DNA from: an uncultured delta proteobacterium
GTDB lineage: Bacteria; Desulfobacterota; Binatia; UBA9968
Reading direction: 5' to 3'
Assembly (NCBI GenBank): GCA_963816145.1
Contig: CAWFJP010000026.1
Span: 1-57,554, forward strand
Length of the DNA stretch: 57,554 nucleotides
The notes beneath the pieces were generated by a model. It saw only the letters and a program-made list of their open reading frames with translations, did no database searches and was not told where the DNA came from. A program made the position numbers and the translations under genes. Of this stretch, positions 6,780 through 53,660 are shown in pieces (within the stretch, counting starts at the first letter, position 1; each line of letters begins with the position of its first letter).

Positions 6780-7484
6780 ATGACTGTTGCTGATCGGCCA
6801 GATGTGGTGACGATTCCCGAGGGCGCGTTTCTGATGGGCTGCGAGGCAGGCCAGGAGAACGAGCGGCCGGTGCATCGCGTGTGGCTGGATCGCTTCGCGT
6901 TGGGCAAGTTTCCCGTGACCAATCGCCAGTACCGGGAATTCCTCGAATCGACCGGCACGGAGCCGCCCCGGTTCTGGTTGGAGCCGATGTTCGCCGATCC
7001 GCGCAAACCGGTGGTCGGCTTGACCTGGTTCGAGGCGGTCGCCTATTGCCGCTGGCTGGAATTGCAGACGGGCGAATCGTTCCGCTTGCCCACCGAAGCT
7101 GAATGGGAACGAGCCGCGCGCGGCGGGCGGGAAGGCACACTTTTCCCCTGGGGCGATGACCTGCCAACCGAAGGGAAAATGATCGGTTGCGATGCGGAAA
7201 ATGGCGGCCCGGCTCCAGTTGGCGCTAACCCGCCCAACGGCTTCGGTCTTTACGACATGAGTGAAGGTGTGCATGAGTGGTGCAGCGATTATTATGAATA
7301 CAATTACTATCGCGACTCTCCCGAGCGGAATCCCCAGGGTGCGGCGTCCGGTGAGCGGCGCGCTTCGCGCGGTGGCTCCTGGCGCCATCAGATCAAGTTC
7401 GCCCGCTGCGCGGCGCGCAGCTCGCTGCCACCGAGCTTCGAATATTCAGATTACGGCTTTCGCGTGGCGGTGACGGTCGGATAA
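6780..7484 (+). CDS. formylglycine-generating enzyme (SUMF1/FGE-sulfatase) domain protein
   Basis: FLMG, PVHRV, PVTN, RLPTEAEWERAARGG, NGFGLYDM, RGGSW and GFR motifs. Confidence 0.92.
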   Translation: MTVADRPDVVTIPEGAFLMGCEAGQENERPVHRVWLDRFALGKFPVTNRQYREFLESTGTEPPRFWLEPMFADPRKPVVGLTWFEAVAYCRWLELQTGESFRLPTEAEWERAARGGREGTLFPWGDDLPTEGKMIGCDAENGGPAPVGANPPNGFGLYDMSEGVHEWCSDYYEYNYYRDSPERNPQGAASGERRASRGGSWRHQIKFARCAARSSLPPSFEYSDYGFRVAVTVG

Positions 7485-7486
7485 GT

Positions 7487-7522
7487 TCGTTCCATAGGTT
7501 CCAGTTGTTCCAATCGTTCCAG
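7487..7522. repeat. 9-mer tandem tract (GTTCCAATC family)
   Basis: GTTCCATAGGTTCCAGTTGTTCCAATCGTTCCAGG between convergent genes. Confidence 0.75.
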
Positions 7523-7533
7523 GTGGCTATCGA

Positions 7534-8496
7534 CTATTTCGCGGTTGCCGGGAGAAATCCGGCGTCGACGAAAGTCTCCCAGGATTTTTTTTCGGGGATC
7601 AAGTTATCCATGGCGAGCAGGCGGATCATTTCGGTCAAACCCACCGGGTCGACTAAGCTTTCGCCGCGATACGAGCGGTTTTCCGGAACCATGAATTTGA
7701 ATGTCCGGGCGGCGACGGTCTCGTCGATCTTCAAGCGCTCCATCATGACGCGCACGGCTTCTTTTTCGTTGGCGGGATCGTTCAACCAGCGCATGGATTG
7801 GCCGATGGCGCGTATAAAGCGCACCAGCACCGGGCGCATTTGAGCCAGCGACTTGTTCGACGCGAAATAGGAACCGTATTGCAGGCTTTTTATTTCGTCG
7901 GAATAATTGAGCAGCACTTTTTTGCCAGCGTCGATGGAGCGAAAGTTGTAGGGCGGCGCTTCGGCGAGAGAGGCGGCGACTTGGCCGGACGCCACGGCTT
8001 GAAATCTTTCCGGACTGCCGCCGATGGATAGAATTGAATAAGCCGAGGGCGGAATGCCTTGGCGCTGCATGACGTCTTTGAAGATCGTCGTGGTGATACT
8101 GGCCACACCGGCGCCGGCGATTTTCTGGCCTTTTAGATCGGCAAGGGATTTGAACTGCGGCTGGCCGATCACTTGATAGGCGTAGCCGTAGGTCGAGGCG
8201 CCGATGATTTTCAACTCTCCGCCGCGCGACGCGGCGATCAGGCCGAAGTGGGTGCCGGATTTTGCTATGTCGACGGTGCCGGCGAGCAGCGCTTTGATCA
8301 CCAGATCGGGCTGCATGTAGGTCGGTTCGAACTCGATGTTTTCCTTGGCGAAGAACCCTTTTGACAAGGCGACGATCTGATCGAGGTCGAAGGCGGTGAT
8401 GTTGGTCGAGCTCATCGTCACCTTGTGGGCGGCGAAAGTCGTCGAGTGAAAAGCGATGGCAGAGGTAACGATAACGATTCGTGTTAAATGGCTCAT
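7534..8496 (-). CDS. ABC substrate-binding protein, NMT1/SsuA-like
   Basis: GFFAKENIE, DLKGQKIA and GGSPERFQAV motifs; paralog of 8808..9777. Confidence 0.9.
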   Translation of the reverse strand: MSHLTRIVIVTSAIAFHSTTFAAHKVTMSSTNITAFDLDQIVALSKGFFAKENIEFEPTYMQPDLVIKALLAGTVDIAKSGTHFGLIAASRGGELKIIGASTYGYAYQVIGQPQFKSLADLKGQKIAGAGVASITTTIFKDVMQRQGIPPSAYSILSIGGSPERFQAVASGQVAASLAEAPPYNFRSIDAGKKVLLNYSDEIKSLQYGSYFASNKSLAQMRPVLVRFIRAIGQSMRWLNDPANEKEAVRVMMERLKIDETVAARTFKFMVPENRSYRGESLVDPVGLTEMIRLLAMDNLIPEKKSWETFVDAGFLPATAK

Positions 8497-8518: not shown

Positions 8519-8793
8519 ATTCACCACGAAGGACACGAAGAGCACGAAGTTAGGAATAATAATTATCCGAGCCCTTCGTGTCCTTCGTGCTTCCTTTGAA
8601 ATAAGGCGCTGTGCGGATAGAGAGCCCTCACCCTTCCCTCTCCCGCACAGCGGGCGAGGGTAAGAAAGTAGACAAAGACGTTCAATGCTCTGCGGCCGAA
8701 AACCCCCTCGCCCATTCCGATGGGAGAGGGTCGGGGTGAGGGCAATTTCATTATCTGTAGACGAGCGTAAGCTCCTGAACACTTCGTGGTGAT
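8519..8793 (+). mobile_element. R2 palindromic repeat (CACCACGAAGGACACGAAG...CTTCGTGGTGA) filled with a 191-bp insert (8591-8781) carrying a CCCTCACCC..CCCTCTCCC REP pair
   Basis: Flanks are nearly identical to the empty copy at 24345-24428; the insert is homologous to 31623-31907. Confidence 0.8.
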
Positions 8794-13565: not shown

Positions 13566-13592
13566 TGTCATTTCGAGCGTAGCGAGAAATCT
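13566..13592. repeat. R3 REP-like palindrome TGTCATTTCGAGCG.AGCGAGAAATCT
   Basis: Other copies at 14752-14778, 14881-14907, 14922-14949 and 36993-37019. A 7-mer AGTCAGA tract precedes it at ~13520-13560. Confidence 0.8.
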
Positions 13593-13645
13593 GTGTTATT
13601 CCGAGCAGTGACCGAAAACGGGGTTGAACCCTTGGTAAATTGTCC

Positions 13646-14836: not shown

Positions 14837-14969
14837 GTAGTGGTTCAGTTTGAGTCGGGCGGACATTTTCAGCCTGAGAAAGATTTCTTGCTGCGTTCGA
14901 AATGACAGAAGAATAGTCGATTTGTCATCTCGAACGAAGTGAGAGATCTCGGTCTGACTGAACCACTAC
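14837..14969. mobile_element. MITE-like element with 13-bp perfect terminal inverted repeats enclosing an R3 REP pair
   Basis: GTAGTGGTTCAGT (14837-14849) and ACTGAACCACTAC (14957-14969); internal inverted R3 copies. Confidence 0.65.
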
Positions 14970-15691: not shown

Positions 15692-15719
15692 GGATGCCGT
15701 TGAGATATGTCTCAACGGC

Positions 15720-15760
15720 CGTTCCAGTCGTTCCAAAGGTTGCAAACGTTCCAATCGATT
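15720..15760. repeat. 9-mer tandem tract (GTTCCAATC family)
   Basis: CGTTCCAGTCGTTCCAAAGGTTGCAAACGTTCCAATCG. Confidence 0.75.
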
Positions 15761-15801
15761 CGTAGCTGACTTCCCGACTCAATTCGAACACGAATACGTT
15801 C

Positions 15802-17641: not shown

Positions 17642-17659
17642 GTTTCGGACTCCTTAACT

Positions 17660-17797
17660 CGTTCCAATAGTTCCAATCGTTCCAGCGGTTCCAATCGTTT
17701 CAGAAATCCGAACCCTGGAACTTTTGAGCCTTGAATCGCAACGCAAGTCGCATCTTGAACCGACCGGAAACCTTGAACTTAGAACCTTGAACCTTTT
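17660..17797. repeat. 9-mer GTTCCAATC tract followed by a 7-mer AACCTTG tract
   Basis: GTTCCAATAGTTCCAATCGTTCCAGCGGTTCCAATCG ... AACCTTGAACTTAGAACCTTGAACC. Confidence 0.75.
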
Positions 17798-24344: not shown

Positions 24345-24428
24345 ATTCACCACGAAGGCACGAAGGACACGAAGGGTTTGGATAATTGTTATTCCTAACT
24401 TCGTGCTCTTCGTGTCCTTCGTGGTGAA
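24345..24428 (-). repeat. R2 palindromic repeat, empty form (~85 bp)
   Basis: TTCACCACGAAGGCACGAAGGACACGAAG...CTTCGTGCTCTTCGTGTCCTTCGTGGTGAA. Confidence 0.85.
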
Positions 24429-29679: not shown

Positions 29680-29903
29680 ATGACCCTCTGCTTGAAGCGA
29701 GGGGGTTCTGAATTTGTCGACTGGAAGTCAACTCTTCCGTCCGTCATTCCGGCGCAGGCCGGAATCCAGGTTTTCTTTGGCTTTGCAGCGCGAGCGAAGA
29801 TGGATGCCGGCCTGCGCCGGCATGACGAATCCTCTCTTCGCCTGAAGCATGTCCTGAGCGCTGACGAAGGGGCGAGGGATTTCAAATATCCCCGAAAGGG
29901 ACA
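29676..29903 (-). repeat. R1 composite repeat copy 2
   Basis: Its reverse complement aligns with 1838-2064; it overlaps the upstream gene's stop codon. Confidence 0.9.
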
Positions 29904-30030
29904 TAAATCTCTCTCTCGATCAGCGTTGAAATGCCGCGCATTCCGACGGATCGAAAGTTTGTCATGCCGTTGGAAACCGGCAGGTGACGGGAAAACAGTC
30001 CAACGGCGAATCCCGTAAGGAGAAATATTT

Positions 30031-31622: not shown

Positions 31623-31907
31623 TTCACCACGAAGTGTTGATGATTTTAGGCTCGTCCACAGATAATGAAATTGCCCTCAGCCCCCTCCCTCTCCCATCGG
31701 AATGGGCGAGGGGGTTTTCGGCCGCAGAGCATTGAACGTCTTTGTCTGCTTTCAATTACCCTCGCCCGCTATGCGGGAGACGGGAAGCGGTCTGAGGGAT
31801 CTCTATCCGCACAGCGCCAGATGTATTTTCAAAGGAGGCACTACGGACATGACGGTTCGGAAAATTAAGTTTCCGGACTTCGTGCTCTTCGTGCCTTCGT
31901 GGTGAAA
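31623..31907 (-). mobile_element. R2 repeat filled with an insert homologous to 8591-8781
   Basis: Same insertion point and insert ends (CTCCTTTGAAAATA...TTATCTGTGGACGAG); the internal sequence matches the 8.6-kb copy. Confidence 0.8.
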
Positions 31908-33477: not shown

Positions 33478-34008
33478 ATGGCCCTGTGGAATCAAGCGAC
33501 CCCTGAAAGCAGTTCAGAAAAGCCGGTGGCGCCGGCTCCAACAGTTACTTCGACCGCTATTCCGGTCGCGACGGTTTCAGCGCCGAATCCGGCACCGGCG
33601 CCGAAGGAAAGCTCAACCGCCAATCGCCGCGAGTCGGTATTCGGTCCCGGCGTGACCATAGAAGGAAAGATCGAAGGCGACGCCGATATTCGCATCGGCG
33701 GCAAGTTCAAGGGCGATATTCATATCAAAGGCGATCTCAACCTCGACAAGGGCGCCAAGGTATCAGCGAAGGTCCATGCCGCCAATGTGACTATCGGCGG
33801 CGAGCTTGAAGGCAACGTGGTCGCCGCCGCTCAAGTGAAACTCCTCGAATCCGGTCAGCTGATTGGCGATCTGAAGGCGGCCACATTGACGGTGGCCGCC
33901 GGCTCGCGCATGCGCGGCAATGTCGAGTTTGGCTGGAGCGCCAGCGAGTCCGCCAAATTCGTCAATGGCCATGCCCACGAACCGGAAAAAGCCGGAGCCG
34001 CCGGATGA
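33478..34008 (+). CDS. bactofilin (polymer-forming cytoskeletal protein)
   Basis: RBS AAGGAGG; Pro/Ala/Thr-rich N-terminus; SVFGPGVTIEGKI..IRIGGKFKGDI..V.IGGELEGNV..GDL.A.TL.V..G...G repeats. Confidence 0.92.
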   Translation: MALWNQATPESSSEKPVAPAPTVTSTAIPVATVSAPNPAPAPKESSTANRRESVFGPGVTIEGKIEGDADIRIGGKFKGDIHIKGDLNLDKGAKVSAKVHAANVTIGGELEGNVVAAAQVKLLESGQLIGDLKAATLTVAAGSRMRGNVEFGWSASESAKFVNGHAHEPEKAGAAG

Positions 34009-34340
34009 AAGCCGGGCAAGTCCTGGCCGGCGAATCGCGCAGCTGCCCTCACTGCAAAGCGACGATACTCAAGAGCGCGGCTAGCTGTCCGATATGCCGC
34101 CACAACTTGCGCTTTGTTGCGCTCGGCGCCGAGCCGCGAGCCAATCCGACGAGTTGCCCGCTCTGGGTCGAAGGCACGCTCAAAAACGCCGGCGACGACG
34201 GGGCGCTGGAATATTTTCTATTGATGGAAGTCCGCGACGAGGCCGGTAATGTAATCTCGCGGCAAAGTGTCGGCGTCGGCGCGATCCCGCAGGCGTCAAA
34301 GAGGATCTTTTCTCTGCGCATCGAAACGACTCCGGCTTGA
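34005..34340 (+). CDS. zinc-ribbon (CPHC..CPIC) protein with an FxLYD-like C-terminal domain
   Basis: ATGA overlap with the bactofilin stop; two CxxC motifs; VEGTLKNAGD...EVRDEAGNVI. Confidence 0.75.
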   Translation: MKAGQVLAGESRSCPHCKATILKSAASCPICRHNLRFVALGAEPRANPTSCPLWVEGTLKNAGDDGALEYFLLMEVRDEAGNVISRQSVGVGAIPQASKRIFSLRIETTPA

Positions 34341-34366
34341 TTGCGCCGCTTACTTGAGGGGACATT

Positions 34367-34658
34367 TATCACCACGAAGGACACGAAGCGCACGAAGGTA
34401 AGAAAGTTTGAGATTCCGAACTTCGTGGCCTTCGTGCGCTCCTTTGAAAATAAGCCTGCGAAGATGATCTACCGAACGAAGAGACCGCCTCGCTCCGTCA
34501 TACCCGCGAAAGCGGGTATCCAGGCTCATTCGGCTCTGAACAAACCTGGATTGCCGCCTGCGCGGGAATGACAATTCGAAGAGAGGATCATGTCAAGGGA
34601 GATCCTCCAATTTTATATTCTGTAGACGAGTGTCAGCTCATGGTTACTTCGTGGTGAA
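34367..34658 (+). mobile_element. R2 repeat filled with a 209-bp insert (34438-34646) carrying a GTCATACCCGCGAAAGCGGGTATCCA REP pair
   Basis: Same insert ends as the 8.6-kb and 31.7-kb copies (CTCCTTTGAAAATAAG...TCTGTAGACGAG) but an unrelated interior. Confidence 0.75.
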
Positions 34659-34691
34659 AAGCGAATTTGCTTCCGCCGCCAGCAGAATCAA

Positions 34692-35792
34692 TTAGCACAG
34701 ATTTGCCAGTATCGGTCTCAACGCTTCGGCGACGCCGTTGGCGATCTGATGCATCCCCGCGTCGTTGGGATGGACGCGGTCGGTGACGAGTAGGAATAGC
34801 GGATCGTTGACCATTGCCAGGCCGTCGGCCAGGTGCAGGTTTTGGTCGGAGTTCTGCCGCTGGCAGACGACGCGGCTGATGCCTTCGCGGTACAACTCCG
34901 GGCGCTCGCCGTTTTGATTGCCGCCGCGTTCTAGATCGGCGCGGTTCAAGATCGGCGTGACGCAGAGGATCGGTTTAGCCGGCGCCACGGCTCTGATCGT
35001 GGCGAGAAAGGCGTCGTACTTCGCCGCATATTGCGCCGCGGTTTCGGCCTTGCCGTAGGCGTCGGTTCCTGCGAAGGAGTTGGTTCCGAGCATGATCGAC
35101 AGCACGTCCCAGTCGTTGCGGCCGGCGATGGTCTGAGCGACGATGTTGTCGGCCCAGGCGGTGCCGCCGAAGCCGAAGTTGATGCCGATGCAGTTCAACT
35201 GCTCGGCGGCCTGCCAGACATAGGTTTCCCGCGGGCTGGTGACGCCATGTCCCTGGGTGATCGAGTCGCCGTGAAAAAACACCCGCGGCCGGGCATCCGG
35301 CGCCGCTTGCTCTAGTGTCGCGCCGGCGTCGATGCCGATGGCGTGCAAAATAATTTCAGAATTACGGTAGTAGAAGGGCAGCAGCACTTGGAGTTCCGCC
35401 AGGCCGGCGATTGCGCGATCGTTGAAGATCGTGACTTCTTGCAGTTCGAAATGGGTCAGCGCCGCCATGCTGGCGGCATACTTACCGTCGCGGTAGAGAG
35501 AGAAGAAATTCGGCCGCGAGCGTTCCCAGCCCGATGCCGGTGTCGCCGGCGGCGTGTCCGGCGCGTCGAAAAACGTGACGCGAAAAACTAATTTCTTGGA
35601 ATCCGTGCGAAAACGCACTGCCATGCCCGCCGAGGACATGGCGCGGCGCGCGGTCTTTTTCGGCCATTGGTTGCGCCAAGTTTTCCCGACGCGCACCGGC
35701 TGCATGCCATCGCCTATAGTTTCCCAATCGGCGACATTGAGCCAATCGAACCGTTGATCGCGCGGATCGAGCCATTGCATCCCGTCAGTCAT
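34692..35792 (-). CDS. SGNH/GDSL hydrolase family protein
   Basis: GDSITQG, NFGFGG, GTN and DRVHP blocks. Confidence 0.9.
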   Translation of the reverse strand: MTDGMQWLDPRDQRFDWLNVADWETIGDGMQPVRVGKTWRNQWPKKTARRAMSSAGMAVRFRTDSKKLVFRVTFFDAPDTPPATPASGWERSRPNFFSLYRDGKYAASMAALTHFELQEVTIFNDRAIAGLAELQVLLPFYYRNSEIILHAIGIDAGATLEQAAPDARPRVFFHGDSITQGHGVTSPRETYVWQAAEQLNCIGINFGFGGTAWADNIVAQTIAGRNDWDVLSIMLGTNSFAGTDAYGKAETAAQYAAKYDAFLATIRAVAPAKPILCVTPILNRADLERGGNQNGERPELYREGISRVVCQRQNSDQNLHLADGLAMVNDPLFLLVTDRVHPNDAGMHQIANGVAEALRPILANLC

Positions 35793-36992: not shown

Positions 36993-37019
36993 TGTCATTT
37001 CGAGCGCAGCGAGAAATCT
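36993..37019. repeat. R3 REP-like palindrome
   Basis: TGTCATTTCGAGCGCAGCGAGAAATCT. Confidence 0.8.
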
Positions 37020-37077
37020 CTTCGGTCCCAAGCAGCTACAGCCAAATTCATCTGAAAGACGACCAAAGGCGGCCAGC

Positions 37078-38778: not shown

Positions 38779-38790
38779 AAGAGAAAATCC

Positions 38791-38890
38791 GTTCCAATCG
38801 TTCCAAACGTTCAAGCCGTTCCAATCGTTGACGGACGAAGAATCGGATTCGGAAATTTAACCGCAAAGGGCGCAAAGAACGCAAAAAACT
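38791..38890. repeat. 9-mer GTTCCAATC tract plus AACCGCAAAG-type 9-mer tract
   Basis: GTTCCAATCGTTCCAAACGTTCAAGCCGTTCCAATCG and AACCGCAAAGGGCGCAAAGAACGCAAA. Confidence 0.7.
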
Positions 38891-50064: not shown

Positions 50065-50277
50065 AGGGTGTTTTCTCCGATGCTGCGCAACCGCCACCGG
50101 CGACCGGGGCGCTTTTGGATCCCTGAAGGCGAAACGGATTATTCTCCGCGCACTCACTGCGACCATAGGACAAGGCTGCGTTAACTTACAAGCGCGCGGT
50201 AAATTTCCGGATTGTTTGATATATTCGAATCGCGGGGCAGATGAGGTAGATAAATCGAATCGAAACACTTTGATTAA

Positions 50278-50481
50278 TGTCGCTCTCAGGCATCGTTGAA
50301 ATCTTTCGCGTTCAGGTGAAGTGAAGGTTTGTCATGCCGGCGAAGGCCGGCATCCATCTTCGCTCATTCTGCAAGGCCGAATAAAGCCTGGATTCCGGCC
50401 TGCGCCGGAATGACGGAAAGAAAAATCGACTTCCAGTCGACAAATTTAGAACCCCTCGGCTCAAAGTAGAGGGCCGATCAG
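50278..50481 (+). repeat. R1 composite repeat copy 4 (lacks the 24-bp internal insert)
   Basis: Aligns with 1838-2064 and ends just before the dinB-like RBS. Confidence 0.88.
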
Positions 50482-53569: not shown

Positions 53570-53660
53570 GGGGTTCCAGGCGCTGGGCGCCGTTCCAATC
53601 GTTCCAGGGTTCCAATTGTTCAAGACGTTTCGCTGTCGATTCGTTCAAAGTTCAATGTCG
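53570..53660. repeat. 9-mer GTTCCAATC tract
   Basis: GTTCCAATCGTTCCAGGGTTCCAATTGTTCAAGACG. Confidence 0.7.

Follow-up and report, generated by a model that had tools for sequence, protein, structure and literature searches.

A probable IS110-derived miniature element with two unrelated hairpin-repeat interiors in the R2 hairpins of an uncultured bacterium

Results

Three inserts share their ends and their position in R2

The window analyzed here is a stretch of 57,554 nt from an uncultured bacterium, in which R2, a hairpin with arms of tandem heptamers, is interrupted three times by an insert at the identical position, just before the last CTTCGTGGTG unit. The parts of the 34.4-kb copy, the other two copies and an uninterrupted R2 are listed below, with the insert ends named after the full-length insertion sequences (ISs) described further on.

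34370-34397, plus strand: R2 left arm, heptamer units read directly as CACCACGAAG-GACACGAAG-CGCACGAAG
34398-34420, plus strand: R2 loop, of a sequence that varies among insert-bearing R2 copies
34421-34438, plus strand: inner two units of the R2 right arm, CTTCGTG GC CTTCGTG CG, left of the insertion point
34439-34440, no strand: left copy of the core dinucleotide CT (AG on the transposase strand), the joint being ambiguous by 2 letters
34441-34458, minus strand: IS right end in transposase orientation, ...TATTTTCAAAGG
34459-34496, no strand: spacer specific to type B, from the alignment of 50 copies
34497-34524, plus strand: left unit of the GTCAT hairpin repeat, GTCATACCCGCGAAAGCGGGTATCCAGG
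34525-34544, no strand: inter-unit spacer, predicted apical part of the long central hairpin
34545-34572, minus strand: right, inverted unit of the GTCAT hairpin repeat, CCTGGATTGCCGCCTGCGCGGGAATGAC
34573-34606, no strand: spacer that differs between copies in the alignment
34607-34646, minus strand: IS left end in transposase orientation, TAACCATGAGCTGACACTCGTCTACAGAATATAAAATTGG, ~40 nt, containing a GAGC-N4-GCTC inverted repeat
34647-34648, no strand: right copy of the core dinucleotide CT, read directly and placed by the empty-site joint
34649-34656, plus strand: remainder of the outer unit of the R2 right arm, TCGTGGTG
8592-8781, minus strand: second copy of the putative miniature, type C interior with the palindrome CCCTCACCC...GGGTGAGGG, within R2 at 8523-8791
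31635-31835, plus strand, which is the transposase orientation: third copy, type C interior, within a degenerate R2 at 31625-31906
24345-24428, no strand: uninterrupted R2 hairpin, empty target ...CTTCGTGTC CT TCGTGGTG

The body of the 34.4-kb insert occupies 34441-34646 (206 bp) and is bracketed by CT at 34439-34440 and 34647-34648; an earlier note on this DNA had recognized a real insert here and had placed it at 34438-34646 with a length of 209 bp. The 31.7-kb copy is oriented opposite to the other two. All three inserts share ~40 nt at the right end in the sense of that note (GCAATTTCAT..TCTGTAGACGAGCGTAAGCTC.TG.ACA) and ~18 nt at the left end (CCTTTGAAAATA...). When the whole 8.6-kb copy was run against the genome with blastn, its sole match to the 34.4-kb copy fell at that right end (34608-34654, 47 nt, 81%), and it matched dozens of further copies at the same end with 82-94% identity. 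The interiors of the 8.6-kb and 31.7-kb copies are 91% identical to each other over ~148 nt, the full copies 88%, whereas the 34.4-kb interior gives no blast match to either beyond the ends, and a forced MAFFT alignment of its copy with the other two reaches only 54-55%. The common termini and the divergent interior reported from the first reading of the window both hold, and the genome-wide profile matches given next rule out chance as the source of the former. No gene lies in the 206-bp body, and longer copies contain nested repeats rather than genes.

The GTCAT doublet is the usual filling in the genome

Searching the 7.8-Mb genome with a profile of the right end, in the same sense, returned 59 copies, 57 of them at E ≤ 1e-5. 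A profile of the left end (22 nt) gave 11 matches in nhmmer, none at E ≤ 1e-5; the census rests on the ~40-nt end because the 22-nt end is too short for nhmmer. From end motif to end motif, 50 copies measure 162-204 nt. By interior, 45 of the 59 copies are type A, eight type B (the 34.4-kb type), four mixed and two type C (CCCTCACCC). Both type C copies lie in the window, and GTCAT-type hairpins are present in 57 of the 59. Counting cargo types across the genome therefore confirms that the interiors are distinct but corrects the emphasis of the earlier note: the GTCAT pair is the usual filling and CCCTCACCC the exception. Eight long candidates with these ends were considered as gene-bearing copies and rejected, all of them proving to be degenerate ends, nested repeats or half-replaced copies without a gene.

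Both kinds of interior consist of hairpin repeats of which further copies lie outside the elements, elsewhere in the genome. A strict GTCAT-CCSGS pattern finds 274 hairpins, 89 inside miniature elements and 185 outside, where free doublets of the same build as the GTCAT interior pair are found as well; GTCATACCGGCGAA units lie inside miniature elements in 43 of 57 cases, or in 45 of 57 when two copies missed by the pattern are counted on our own reading. In every type the interior is predicted to fold into a long hairpin, whatever its sequence. The GAGC-TTAC-GCTC hairpin seen in the conserved end, checked for covariation as GAGC-N4-GCTC, showed no compensatory change: its 4-bp stem is perfect in 37 of the 59 copies, has a wobble pair in 6 and is mismatched in 16, and ten full-length copies are mismatched. 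The genome's miniature copies are old: between pairs of 41 type A copies the median identity is 80%, and the nearest neighbour stands at 90.5%; the single identical pair reflects a duplicated contig stretch.

The insertion point is fixed, and one site is exactly empty elsewhere

Paired R2 loci number 223 in the genome; 176 of them are ≤110 bp and uninterrupted. Directly after the insert, the outer-arm R2 decamer is found with ≤2 mismatches in 54 of the 59 copies, and CT flanks both sides in most. The insert always precedes the last arm unit, even in R2 hairpins with two-unit arms or CTCTGTG units; host R2 copies vary in loop, arm-unit number and genomic context, and the insert position is constant. 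Terminal inverted repeats between the miniature's two ends were not seen in alignments of the copies and of the full-length element.

Contigs from two public runs, X15 and X1, join 34438 to 34647 and skip 208 nt (34439-34646), with a 2-nt ambiguity. The X15 contig is 609 nt long at ~93% identity and has a short side of 34 nt; in X1 the short side is just 18 nt, and the exact occupied form is present in the same run. These empty-site forms derive from other strains. The orthologous spacer likewise lacks the insert in three genomes of the same genus (G002, G003 and G004). At least two independent insertions into R2 had been proposed; with 59 copies in differing R2 hairpins and an exact empty site, there have been many, and the proposed nesting of three levels, from R2 target through conserved-end cassette to REP pair, is real. 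X15 is an RNA library, in which the high summed depth over 34474-34596 comes from multi-copy repeats of many organisms and is uninformative on transcription. We attach no meaning to the stretches left uncovered in a further run, X3.

Full-length IS110-family elements carry the same ends

An end-motif scan recovered 20 loci in other metagenome-assembled genomes (MAGs). The locus L029 holds a 1542-bp element with the same two ends and a 422-aa open reading frame (ORF) that matches PF01548 (1.5e-29) and PF02371 (1.6e-15). The ORF also scores 267 bits (cut-off 140) with the model NF033542, 'IS110 family RNA-guided transposase'. Its relatives L030-L038 and L046 are 74-88% identical and have the same architecture, and the same end motifs recur in L030, L034-L036, L038 and L061. 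Seven full-length loci with both ends span 1542-1549 bp, flanked as CACCACGAAG / element / AG-N-CACGAAG; like the miniature, the full-length elements are bracketed by AG...AG, with an R2 target and the same 2-bp core. They were found in other MAGs and in three same-genus genomes, and the left end of a same-genus copy, L061 in G009, is nearer to that of the miniature.

Miniature and full-length elements share only the first 37-42 nt and the last 11-18 nt, with nothing in common between; local alignments of L034 with the miniature cover 32-40 nt at the start and 11 nt at the end. The ~12-18 nt of the IS right end are common to full-length elements and all miniature subfamilies, and the left end at 34607-34646 corresponds to the transposase-proximal end of full-length elements. 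With sharing confined to the ends, independent internal deletions of autonomous elements, one of the two origins that the earlier note had offered, find no support.

No cognate transposase was found in this genome, in which the sole IS110-type gene is 37% identical and lacks these ends. Of 30 further genomes from the genus, 3 contain close homologues, the unpublished G005 among them. At L029/L030 a full-length element and a miniature module stand in tandem, and right end-AG-left end junctions involving full-length elements in L075 and L069 could represent circles or tandem copies. A consensus fold of the full-length 5′ region (7 sequences) contains double changes in 3 of 60 pairs and serves for orientation only. 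Rfam returned nothing for the whole window at the gathering threshold; at permissive E-values, the 34.4-kb region and three full-length loci gave only chance miRNA and sRNA matches below threshold.

A candidate guide covaries with the left target flank

Among 67 loci examined, 56 could be parsed for the segment between AGCCCG and TGTGATC, which we compared with the last 8 nt of the left flank. Agreement reaches 7 or 8 of the 8 positions in 50 parsed loci and is limited to 4-6 positions in the other 6. Guide and target covary: six guide variants, each with its own flank type, were found (CCACGAAG/ACACGAAG, CCACAGAG, CCGCAGAG, CCACAAAG and CAAAGGAG), and on shuffling the 11 distinct guide-flank pairs, the observed match was reached in 1 of 10,000 trials. 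Elements with the guide CAAAGGAG sit directly behind an ...TTTCAAAGG-AG end in L030, L095 and L111.

The candidate donor segment GCGAAGGAG-AATCGA is near-invariant and shows no covariation with the element's opening bases (TGATTC, TGGGCC, TGTGTC, TGGTTC). Because the segment after GCGAAGGAG fails to follow the element start, we name no right-donor guide, and the putative guide identified from these sequences is that of the left target alone. Reading the aligned type A miniatures by eye, we saw no CACGAAG and no AAGGAG between their ends. Some copies have a CACCAC-like stretch, which was considered as a guide and set aside; it lacks conservation and forms part of the closing stem of the central hairpin.

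Discussion

We conclude that the cassette is very probably a non-autonomous, transposase-less miniature of an IS110-family insertion sequence, MITE-like but without inverted terminal repeats. It has its ends, target and core in common with full-length elements in which guide and target covary, and its site at 34.4 kb is found exactly empty. The earlier note gave the vehicle no identity, and we would assign it to the non-autonomous elements of the IS110 family, of the bridge-RNA type. Its autonomous partner would be an element of ~1545 bp combining a DEDD/Tnp_20 RNA-guided recombinase with a ~245-nt 5′ non-coding region, and that region would hold the 8-nt guide, equal to the left target flank plus core (CCACGAAG). 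Recombination would take place at the AG core in the outer heptamer of R2, CACCACGA-AG-GNCACGAAG, leaving the core on both sides. The miniature appears to retain just ~40 nt on the left and ~12-18 nt on the right. As it seems to lack a guide of its own, its excision and insertion would have to be carried out in trans, by the recombinase and bridge RNA that the full-length partner supplies.

If only the ends are needed, the interior would be free to vary. With short ends alone conserved, the palindromic filling could differ between copies: nearly all contain two of the genome's GTCAT hairpin repeats in inverted orientation, and the other two copies in the window contain two units of another hairpin repeat. 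Most likely the family in this genome, with 59 diverged copies and no cognate transposase, is a stranded relic of past activity.

How the fillings came to differ is a separate question. The second origin offered by the earlier note, a vehicle spreading different REP families, is partly right in that the filling is swappable, both interiors being hairpin repeats with free copies elsewhere in the genome; active capture and spread are unproven, and one filling dominates in 57 of the 59 copies. It is a serious possibility that the different interiors arose in place, with resident repeats or small elements entering an existing copy whose older interior was then deleted. Nested insertions in several copies would make this a simpler route than capture: the copy at C1:154.7 kb has a TIR-bounded TGTCATTTCGAG element in its middle, those at C3:240 kb and L019 have insertions within a hairpin unit, and the left half has been replaced in C24 and at C1:94.8 kb. 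The ends shared by types C and A (18 and 42 nt) are also slightly longer than those shared with the full-length element. However, no intermediate with both interiors is present among the 59 copies, and the history of type C cannot be traced because it comprises two copies only.

A more elaborate reading, which we regard as rather unlikely, is that two selfish systems are stacked here, the IS110 vehicle having taken up a doublet of the host hairpin and become the main multiplier of that repeat variant, while some full-length lineages retargeted their guide to the end of the miniature or of a related element. Were this true, occupied sites would become landing pads, on which tandem modules of IS and miniature form, and the cargo swap in type C would be a regular outcome of modularity and not an accident.

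Compatible with an IS110-derived miniature, and in our judgment quite improbable, is that the element has been retained for a functional small RNA, such as ssr9 in MITEPpu9, or for a regulatory hairpin. On that account both the 40 conserved nt at one end and the long hairpin in the middle would belong to an RNA, beyond any role as recombination sites. The interior is indeed predicted to be a long hairpin regardless of sequence, the one IS110 MITE known to us from print has an sRNA gene (PMC12288879), and the ~40 nt conserved at the left end exceed the need for donor pairing by a bridge RNA. Against it, no Rfam family matches, the end hairpin lacks compensatory change across 59 copies, the interiors are ordinary hairpin repeats found genome-wide, and RNA-library contigs are uninformative for the transcription of a multi-copy repeat.

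Two further explanations seem to us highly improbable. A single-strand IS200/IS605 or RAYT-type palindrome-associated element, moved into R2 by one of the genome's Y1 transposases, would suit the REPIN-like doublet, the hairpin target, the absence of terminal inverted repeats and the 7 Y1_Tnp matches in the genome; yet relatives with both ends and the target encode an IS110 recombinase and not a Y1 enzyme, with no Y1 (TnpA) or TnpB gene between these ends, and the 2-bp core stands on both sides. Within ~1.5 kb on each side of the 7 Y1_Tnp loci, moreover, neither end motifs nor GTCAT-CCSG are present, the one R2 there (near L003, with its insert) is unrelated, and no RAYT is flanked by GTCAT or R2 repeats. 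That R2 and insert form one composite repeat, multiplied through duplication or recombination and not through site-specific insertion, could draw on the tracking of R2 variants by insert subfamilies, with copies resident in CTCTGTG-type R2 forming their own subgroup, but this correlation is explained by full-length elements with matching guides, and 176 R2 loci are uninterrupted, host loops and arm-unit numbers vary around a fixed insert position, and the 34.4-kb site is exactly empty elsewhere.

Judged by features rather than by transposase sequence, the closest precedent appears to be MITEPpu9/ISPpu9 of Pseudomonas putida KT2440, for which a REP target, an AG core, conserved boxes at the ends and circles consisting of just the small module have been described (PMC12288879). 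As in that account, a transposase-less small module lies between IS end boxes (the A box of MITEPpu9 has ~43 bp with an inverted repeat), a REP-type palindrome serves as target, recombination falls at an AG that is present on both sides, and the module occurs both alone and in tandem with a full-length element, here at L029/L030 (PMC12288879). The two systems differ in content and number: MITEPpu9 contains the sRNA gene ssr9 and is reported in 8 copies beside 7 full-length elements in the same genome, whereas the element here contains a hairpin-repeat doublet, has 59 copies without a partner in the genome, comes with two unrelated fillings and targets a tandem-heptamer hairpin (PMC12288879).

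The comparison with IS621 bears on the putative guide. Both systems combine an IS110-family recombinase with a 5′ non-coding RNA, and in both a guide of ~8 nt, here a putative one, equals left target plus core, while a REP is the target and the element is bracketed by a repeated 2-nt core (Durrant et al. 2024, PMC11208160; Hiraizumi et al. 2024, PMC11208158). The core is AG here in transposase orientation and CT in IS621, and the guide, which in IS621 lies on the 5′ side of an internal loop, would here lie on the 3′ side of a hairpin arm in a poorly supported fold (PMC11208160; PMC11208158). For IS621, a 22-bp donor is described as sufficient when the RNA is supplied in trans (PMC11208160; PMC11208158). 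ISPpu10 is a further IS110 element whose natural targets, as reported, are copies of an intergenic sequence that forms stem-loops (10.64898/2026.03.19.712850), and for ISPa11, ISPpu9, ISPpu10 and ISRm19, all of the IS110 family, Tobes and Pareja (2006, PMC1525189) describe one fixed REP position in every copy. Their account concerns full-length elements only, whereas here there is also a miniature (PMC1525189). The interior itself resembles REPINs as described by Bertels and Rainey (2011, PMC3116915), in having two inverted hairpin repeats with a short spacer; unlike in the REPIN/RAYT system of that paper, the doublet rides inside IS110 ends, and no repeat-flanked RAYT was found (PMC3116915).

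This reading provides a concrete explanation for a three-level nested repeat spread over the intergenic DNA of an uncultured soil lineage in ~59 copies per genome. An element without inverted repeats would otherwise be annotated as unexplained clusters of REPs. The mechanism is a known one and opens no long-standing question. IS110-derived miniatures have barely been described in print, the ISPpu9 study being the only paper we found to combine bridge RNA, miniature inverted-repeat and IS110. Given this sparse literature, the present family, with its high copy number and two unrelated fillings, is an additional natural case, and it suggests that ~40 + 15 nt of IS110 ends are enough for carrying foreign DNA. 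Finally, the full-length relatives offer a compact natural set of guide-target covariation, and its six variants, including guides directed to the element's own end, may be of interest for research on bridge recombinases and for their engineering.

Insertion of cassettes into R2 hairpins

The window holds four copies of R2, a hairpin repeat with heptamer arms, that bear on the analysis, three of them interrupted by a small insert that we call the cassette:

34370-34656, R2 hairpin repeat, interrupted (read directly)
24345-24428, R2 without interruption
8592-8781, second insert, in R2 at the same position as the 34.4-kb one
31635-31835, third insert, in R2 at the same position, opposite orientation

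At the 34.4-kb locus, the left arm of R2 consists of the tandem heptamers CACCACGAAG-GACACGAAG-CGCACGAAG, the loop comes next and the right arm reads CTTCGTG-GC-CTTCGTG-CG...CTTCGTGGTG; a 206-bp body (34441-34646) with CT on each side splits the repeat ahead of its last unit. The three inserts have ~40 nt in common at one end (GCAATTTCAT..TCTGTAGACGAGCGTAAGCTC.TG.ACA) and ~18 nt at the other (CCTTTGAAAATA..). The interiors of the 8.6-kb and 31.7-kb copies are 91% identical to each other, and blastn of these two against the 34.4-kb copy returned no match outside the ends, with a forced alignment giving 54–55% identity. The observation in an earlier note that the inserts combine the same termini with different interiors was therefore correct.

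An exact empty site exists for the 34.4-kb insert. Among public-run contigs aligned to 33900-35100, two join 34438 to 34647, skipping 208 nt with a 2-letter ambiguity, that is, the body and one CT. The contig from run X15 (609 nt, RNA library, 34 nt on the short side) is only ~93% identical and so comes from a relative; the DNA contig from run X1 has two differences in 88 nt and 18 nt on the short side (<30, a weak anchor), and the same run also carries the exact occupied left junction. The orthologous spacer in three genomes of the same genus (G002, G003 and G004) is 80–126 nt long and has no insert, and R2 is absent as well in G003 and G004.

Tandem paralogous gene runs with 73–78% DNA identity occur in the window at 7763-8062/9035-9334, 9935-10541/11335-11941, 25691-26302/26837-27447 and 2159-3046/3160-4047, and one such pair flanks the 8.6-kb R2 with its insert.

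Census of the cassette family and its interiors

The window is an entire contig of a 7.8-Mb genome in 31 contigs (estimated contamination 6.7%). A profile search of this genome with the long end recovered 59 cassette copies, of which 57 score E ≤ 1e-5. The outer decamer of R2 (≤2 mismatches) directly follows the cassette in 54 of the 59, and a degenerate decamer does so in the remaining five; 50 copies with both end motifs have 162–204 nt between the motifs and can be aligned along their full length. Host R2 copies come in variants with different loops, with more or fewer units per arm and with either CTTCGTG or CTCTGTG as the unit, and in every variant the insertion point is the same, ahead of the last unit. 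A strict count of paired R2 loci in the genome comes to 223: 176 are uninterrupted and ≤110 bp, 28 carry the insert, and 19 are longer and lack the insert motif, some of them chance pairs and some hosts to other elements.

Interiors fall into three types, each folding into one long hairpin. Type A, with hairpin units GTCATACCGG...CCGGCATGAC, accounts for 45 of the 59 copies and type B (GTCATACCCGCG...CGCGGGAATGAC) for eight, including the 34.4-kb copy, which best matches C30:224.9 kb at 87.5% identity; four interiors are mixed or half-replaced, and type C, a CCCTCACCC palindrome, is found only in the 8.6-kb and 31.7-kb copies. Two unrelated fillings do exist, as the earlier note had it, but the GTCAT pair that it took for the different cargo is the norm; with two copies in 59, the different cargo is thus the rare CCCTCACCC type. 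The family looks old in this genome to judge by sequence divergence (41 type A copies have a median pairwise identity of 80% and a nearest-neighbour identity of 90.5%), and the sole identical pair (C14:233.4 kb and C22:4.1 kb), whose flanks are identical too, probably stems from a stretch that the assembly contains twice.

The units that make up the interiors also occur outside the cassette. Strict GTCAT-CCSGS hairpins number 274 in the genome, 185 of them outside cassettes, and ordinary intergenic regions also have free inverted doublets with the same spacer, as at C1:365.7 kb and C4:471.1 kb. Cassettes hold 43 occurrences of the variant GTCATACCGGCGAA; another 14 were counted outside them, two of which are cassettes missed by the pattern. 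Pieces of 37–48 nt from the type C interior are present at about seven further loci, in one case as a doublet (C4:522.1 kb). Interiors may differ through in-place turnover by the genome's own hairpin repeats, a reading favoured by those cassette copies that contain nested insertions or have half of the interior replaced. No A/C intermediate occurs among the 59.

Full-length IS110-family relatives

A scan of one genome per species for the end motif turned up 20 loci, most of which have the same small element within an R2-like hairpin; the MAGs concerned carry the labels uncultured delta proteobacterium, Thermodesulfobacteriota, Nitrospira, Binatia, Limnocylindrales and Chromatiales. At locus L029, a 422-aa ORF lies on the opposite strand, 245 nt beyond the long end, with the domains DEDD_Tnp_IS110 (1.5e-29) and Transposase_20 (1.6e-15) and a score of 267 bits (cut-off 140) against the NCBIfam model 'IS110 family RNA-guided transposase'; the short end motif stands just past its stop codon, adjoining CTCTTCGTGTG-CT. 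A search with this protein retrieved relatives at L030-L038 and L046 with 74–88% identity. The seven full-length loci with both ends measure 1542–1549 bp and read, in transposase orientation, CACCACGA-AG, TGATTCATGA.CTTACGCTCG, the gene, CCAAATTTTC.AAGG and AG-N-CACGAAG.

Full-length and small elements are identical in target, insertion point and duplicated dinucleotide. They have only their first 32–40 nt and last 11 nt in common, and the small element is therefore not simply an internal deletion of an autonomous one, an origin that the earlier note had offered. This genome has no cognate transposase; the one IS110-type gene in it reaches 37% identity and lacks all of the end motifs. Among 30 other genomes from the genus, three have close homologues (G009, 74%; G032, 80%; G005, unpublished and used for this comparison only, 85%), and the left end of the G009 element is closer to that of the small copies. 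At L029/L030, small element, AG and full-length element follow one another in tandem.

The L030-L038 transposases, 74–87% identical, come from MAGs labelled delta proteobacterium, Actinomycetes, Verrucomicrobiia, Acidiferrales and Chromatiales, all within R2-like heptamer hairpins. Such similarity across phylum labels reflects either horizontal spread or binning errors.

The guide tracks the target

The small element has IS110 ends, target and core, and the guide of its full-length relatives tracks the target. In their 5' non-coding region, an 8-nt segment between AGCCCG and TGTGATC is identical to the final 8 nt of the left flank, including the core; this match was first noticed among seven genome loci, which showed three variants. 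Fifty-seven metagenome loci were collected by a conserved piece of this region; of 67 loci examined, 56 were parsed, and guide and left flank agree at 8/8 positions in 19, 7/8 in 31, 6/8 in one, 5/8 in four and 4/8 in one. Guides ACACGAAG or CCACGAAG pair with CCACGAAG flanks; CCACAGAG flanks go with guide CCACAGAG (eight loci) or ACACAGAG (one); and CCGCAGAG (three loci), CCACAAAG (one) and CAAAGGAG (three) each occur as both guide and flank. When the 11 distinct pairs were shuffled, the observed match was reached in 1 of 10,000 trials.

Neither a right-target guide nor a donor loop could be named in the full-length 5' region. A candidate donor segment, GCGAAGGAG, matches the right end of the element together with the core. 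It is nearly invariant, however, and no covariation was seen between the bases that follow it and those at the start of the element. The consensus fold of the region shows little covariation, Rfam returned no family match, and neither CACGAAG nor AAGGAG was seen between type A ends when the aligned copies were read by eye. The covariation check proposed earlier for the GAGC-N4-GCTC hairpin of the conserved end came out against it: among the 59 copies, 37 are perfect, six have a G-T wobble and 16 a mismatch; ten full-length copies read GAGCGTAAGATC, which carries a mismatch; and no compensatory change was seen in either set. What is conserved is the sequence. A similar short palindrome within the A box of ISPpu9 is reported to be dispensable for circle formation (PMC12288879).

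One full-length lineage has guide CAAAGGAG in place of CCACGAAG (L030, which is L029 reversed, at 700-1200; L095; L111; L121) and immediately follows a ...TTTCAAAGG-AG end, which is the right end of a miniature copy in L030 and the end of a deleted relative in L111. L069 has TCGAAGGAG at the guide position, behind ...TTTTCGAAGG-AG. With the CAAAGGAG guide, this lineage looks naturally retargeted to an end of its own family, and tandem modules would result. On metagenome contigs L075 and L069, full-length right end, AG and left end are directly joined (...CCAAATTTTCGAAGG AG TGTTTCATGAGC...), which would fit either a circle junction or a tandem dimer.

Proposed mechanism and relation to known systems

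We propose that a full-length partner would supply recombinase and bridge RNA, that these would recognise the ends of the small element, once joined, as donor and the outer unit of R2 as target, with recombination at AG, and that whatever stands between the two short ends would travel as a passenger. The precedent is ISPpu9: its miniature module MITEPpu9, which carries ssr9 between copies of the end boxes, circularises on its own, enters REP sequences at AG and is found either singly or as a tandem with the IS (PMC12288879). L029/L030 likewise holds a tandem.

IS110-family targeting of REP has long been known (PMC1525189), the bridge-RNA mechanism is established (PMC11208160, PMC11208158) and the target stem-loop of ISPpu10 is reported as an extra determinant (preprint 10.64898/2026.03.19.712850). 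The literature searched yielded one description of an IS110 MITE, in the ISPpu9 paper (PMC12288879), with nothing closer among the matches listed. The present family joins these ISPpu9-type MITEs. Unlike MITEPpu9, it has a high copy number with no partner in the genome, and its filling is hairpin-repeat doublets plus a second, unrelated filling.

Other repeats in the genome

A second small element, with inverted repeats at its ends (ACTGTGTCGCAAC...CGACACAG.CT) and TGTCATTTCGAG-type hairpins inside, is another vehicle whose filling consists of hairpin repeats:

C18:249263-249473, inverted-repeat-bounded small element
C30:246220-246434, the same
C14:618333-618556, the same
C1:~154.7-155.2 kb, the same

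It enters R2 elsewhere (after CCTTCGAG) and, once, lies mid-way in an IS110 miniature copy. The genome has 233 TGTCATTTCGAG-like sites, none within IS110 miniature copies by the pattern used.

Seven Y1 transposase-like genes of this genome (L003-L009; three frames of ~165 aa and three of ~325 aa) are candidate RAYTs for the GTCAT repeats, and no repeats were seen beside the seven. Free GTCAT-type repeats (TGTCATTTCGAGCG.AGCGAGAAATC, GTCATGCCGG..) lie in the window at 13566-13608, 14923-14965 and 36993-37035 and also at 29903-29982 and 50273-50352. A 9-base unit (CGTTCCAAT-like) forms short intergenic arrays in the window at 7479-7536, 15711-15768, 17642-17717, 38781-38829 and 53600-53640.
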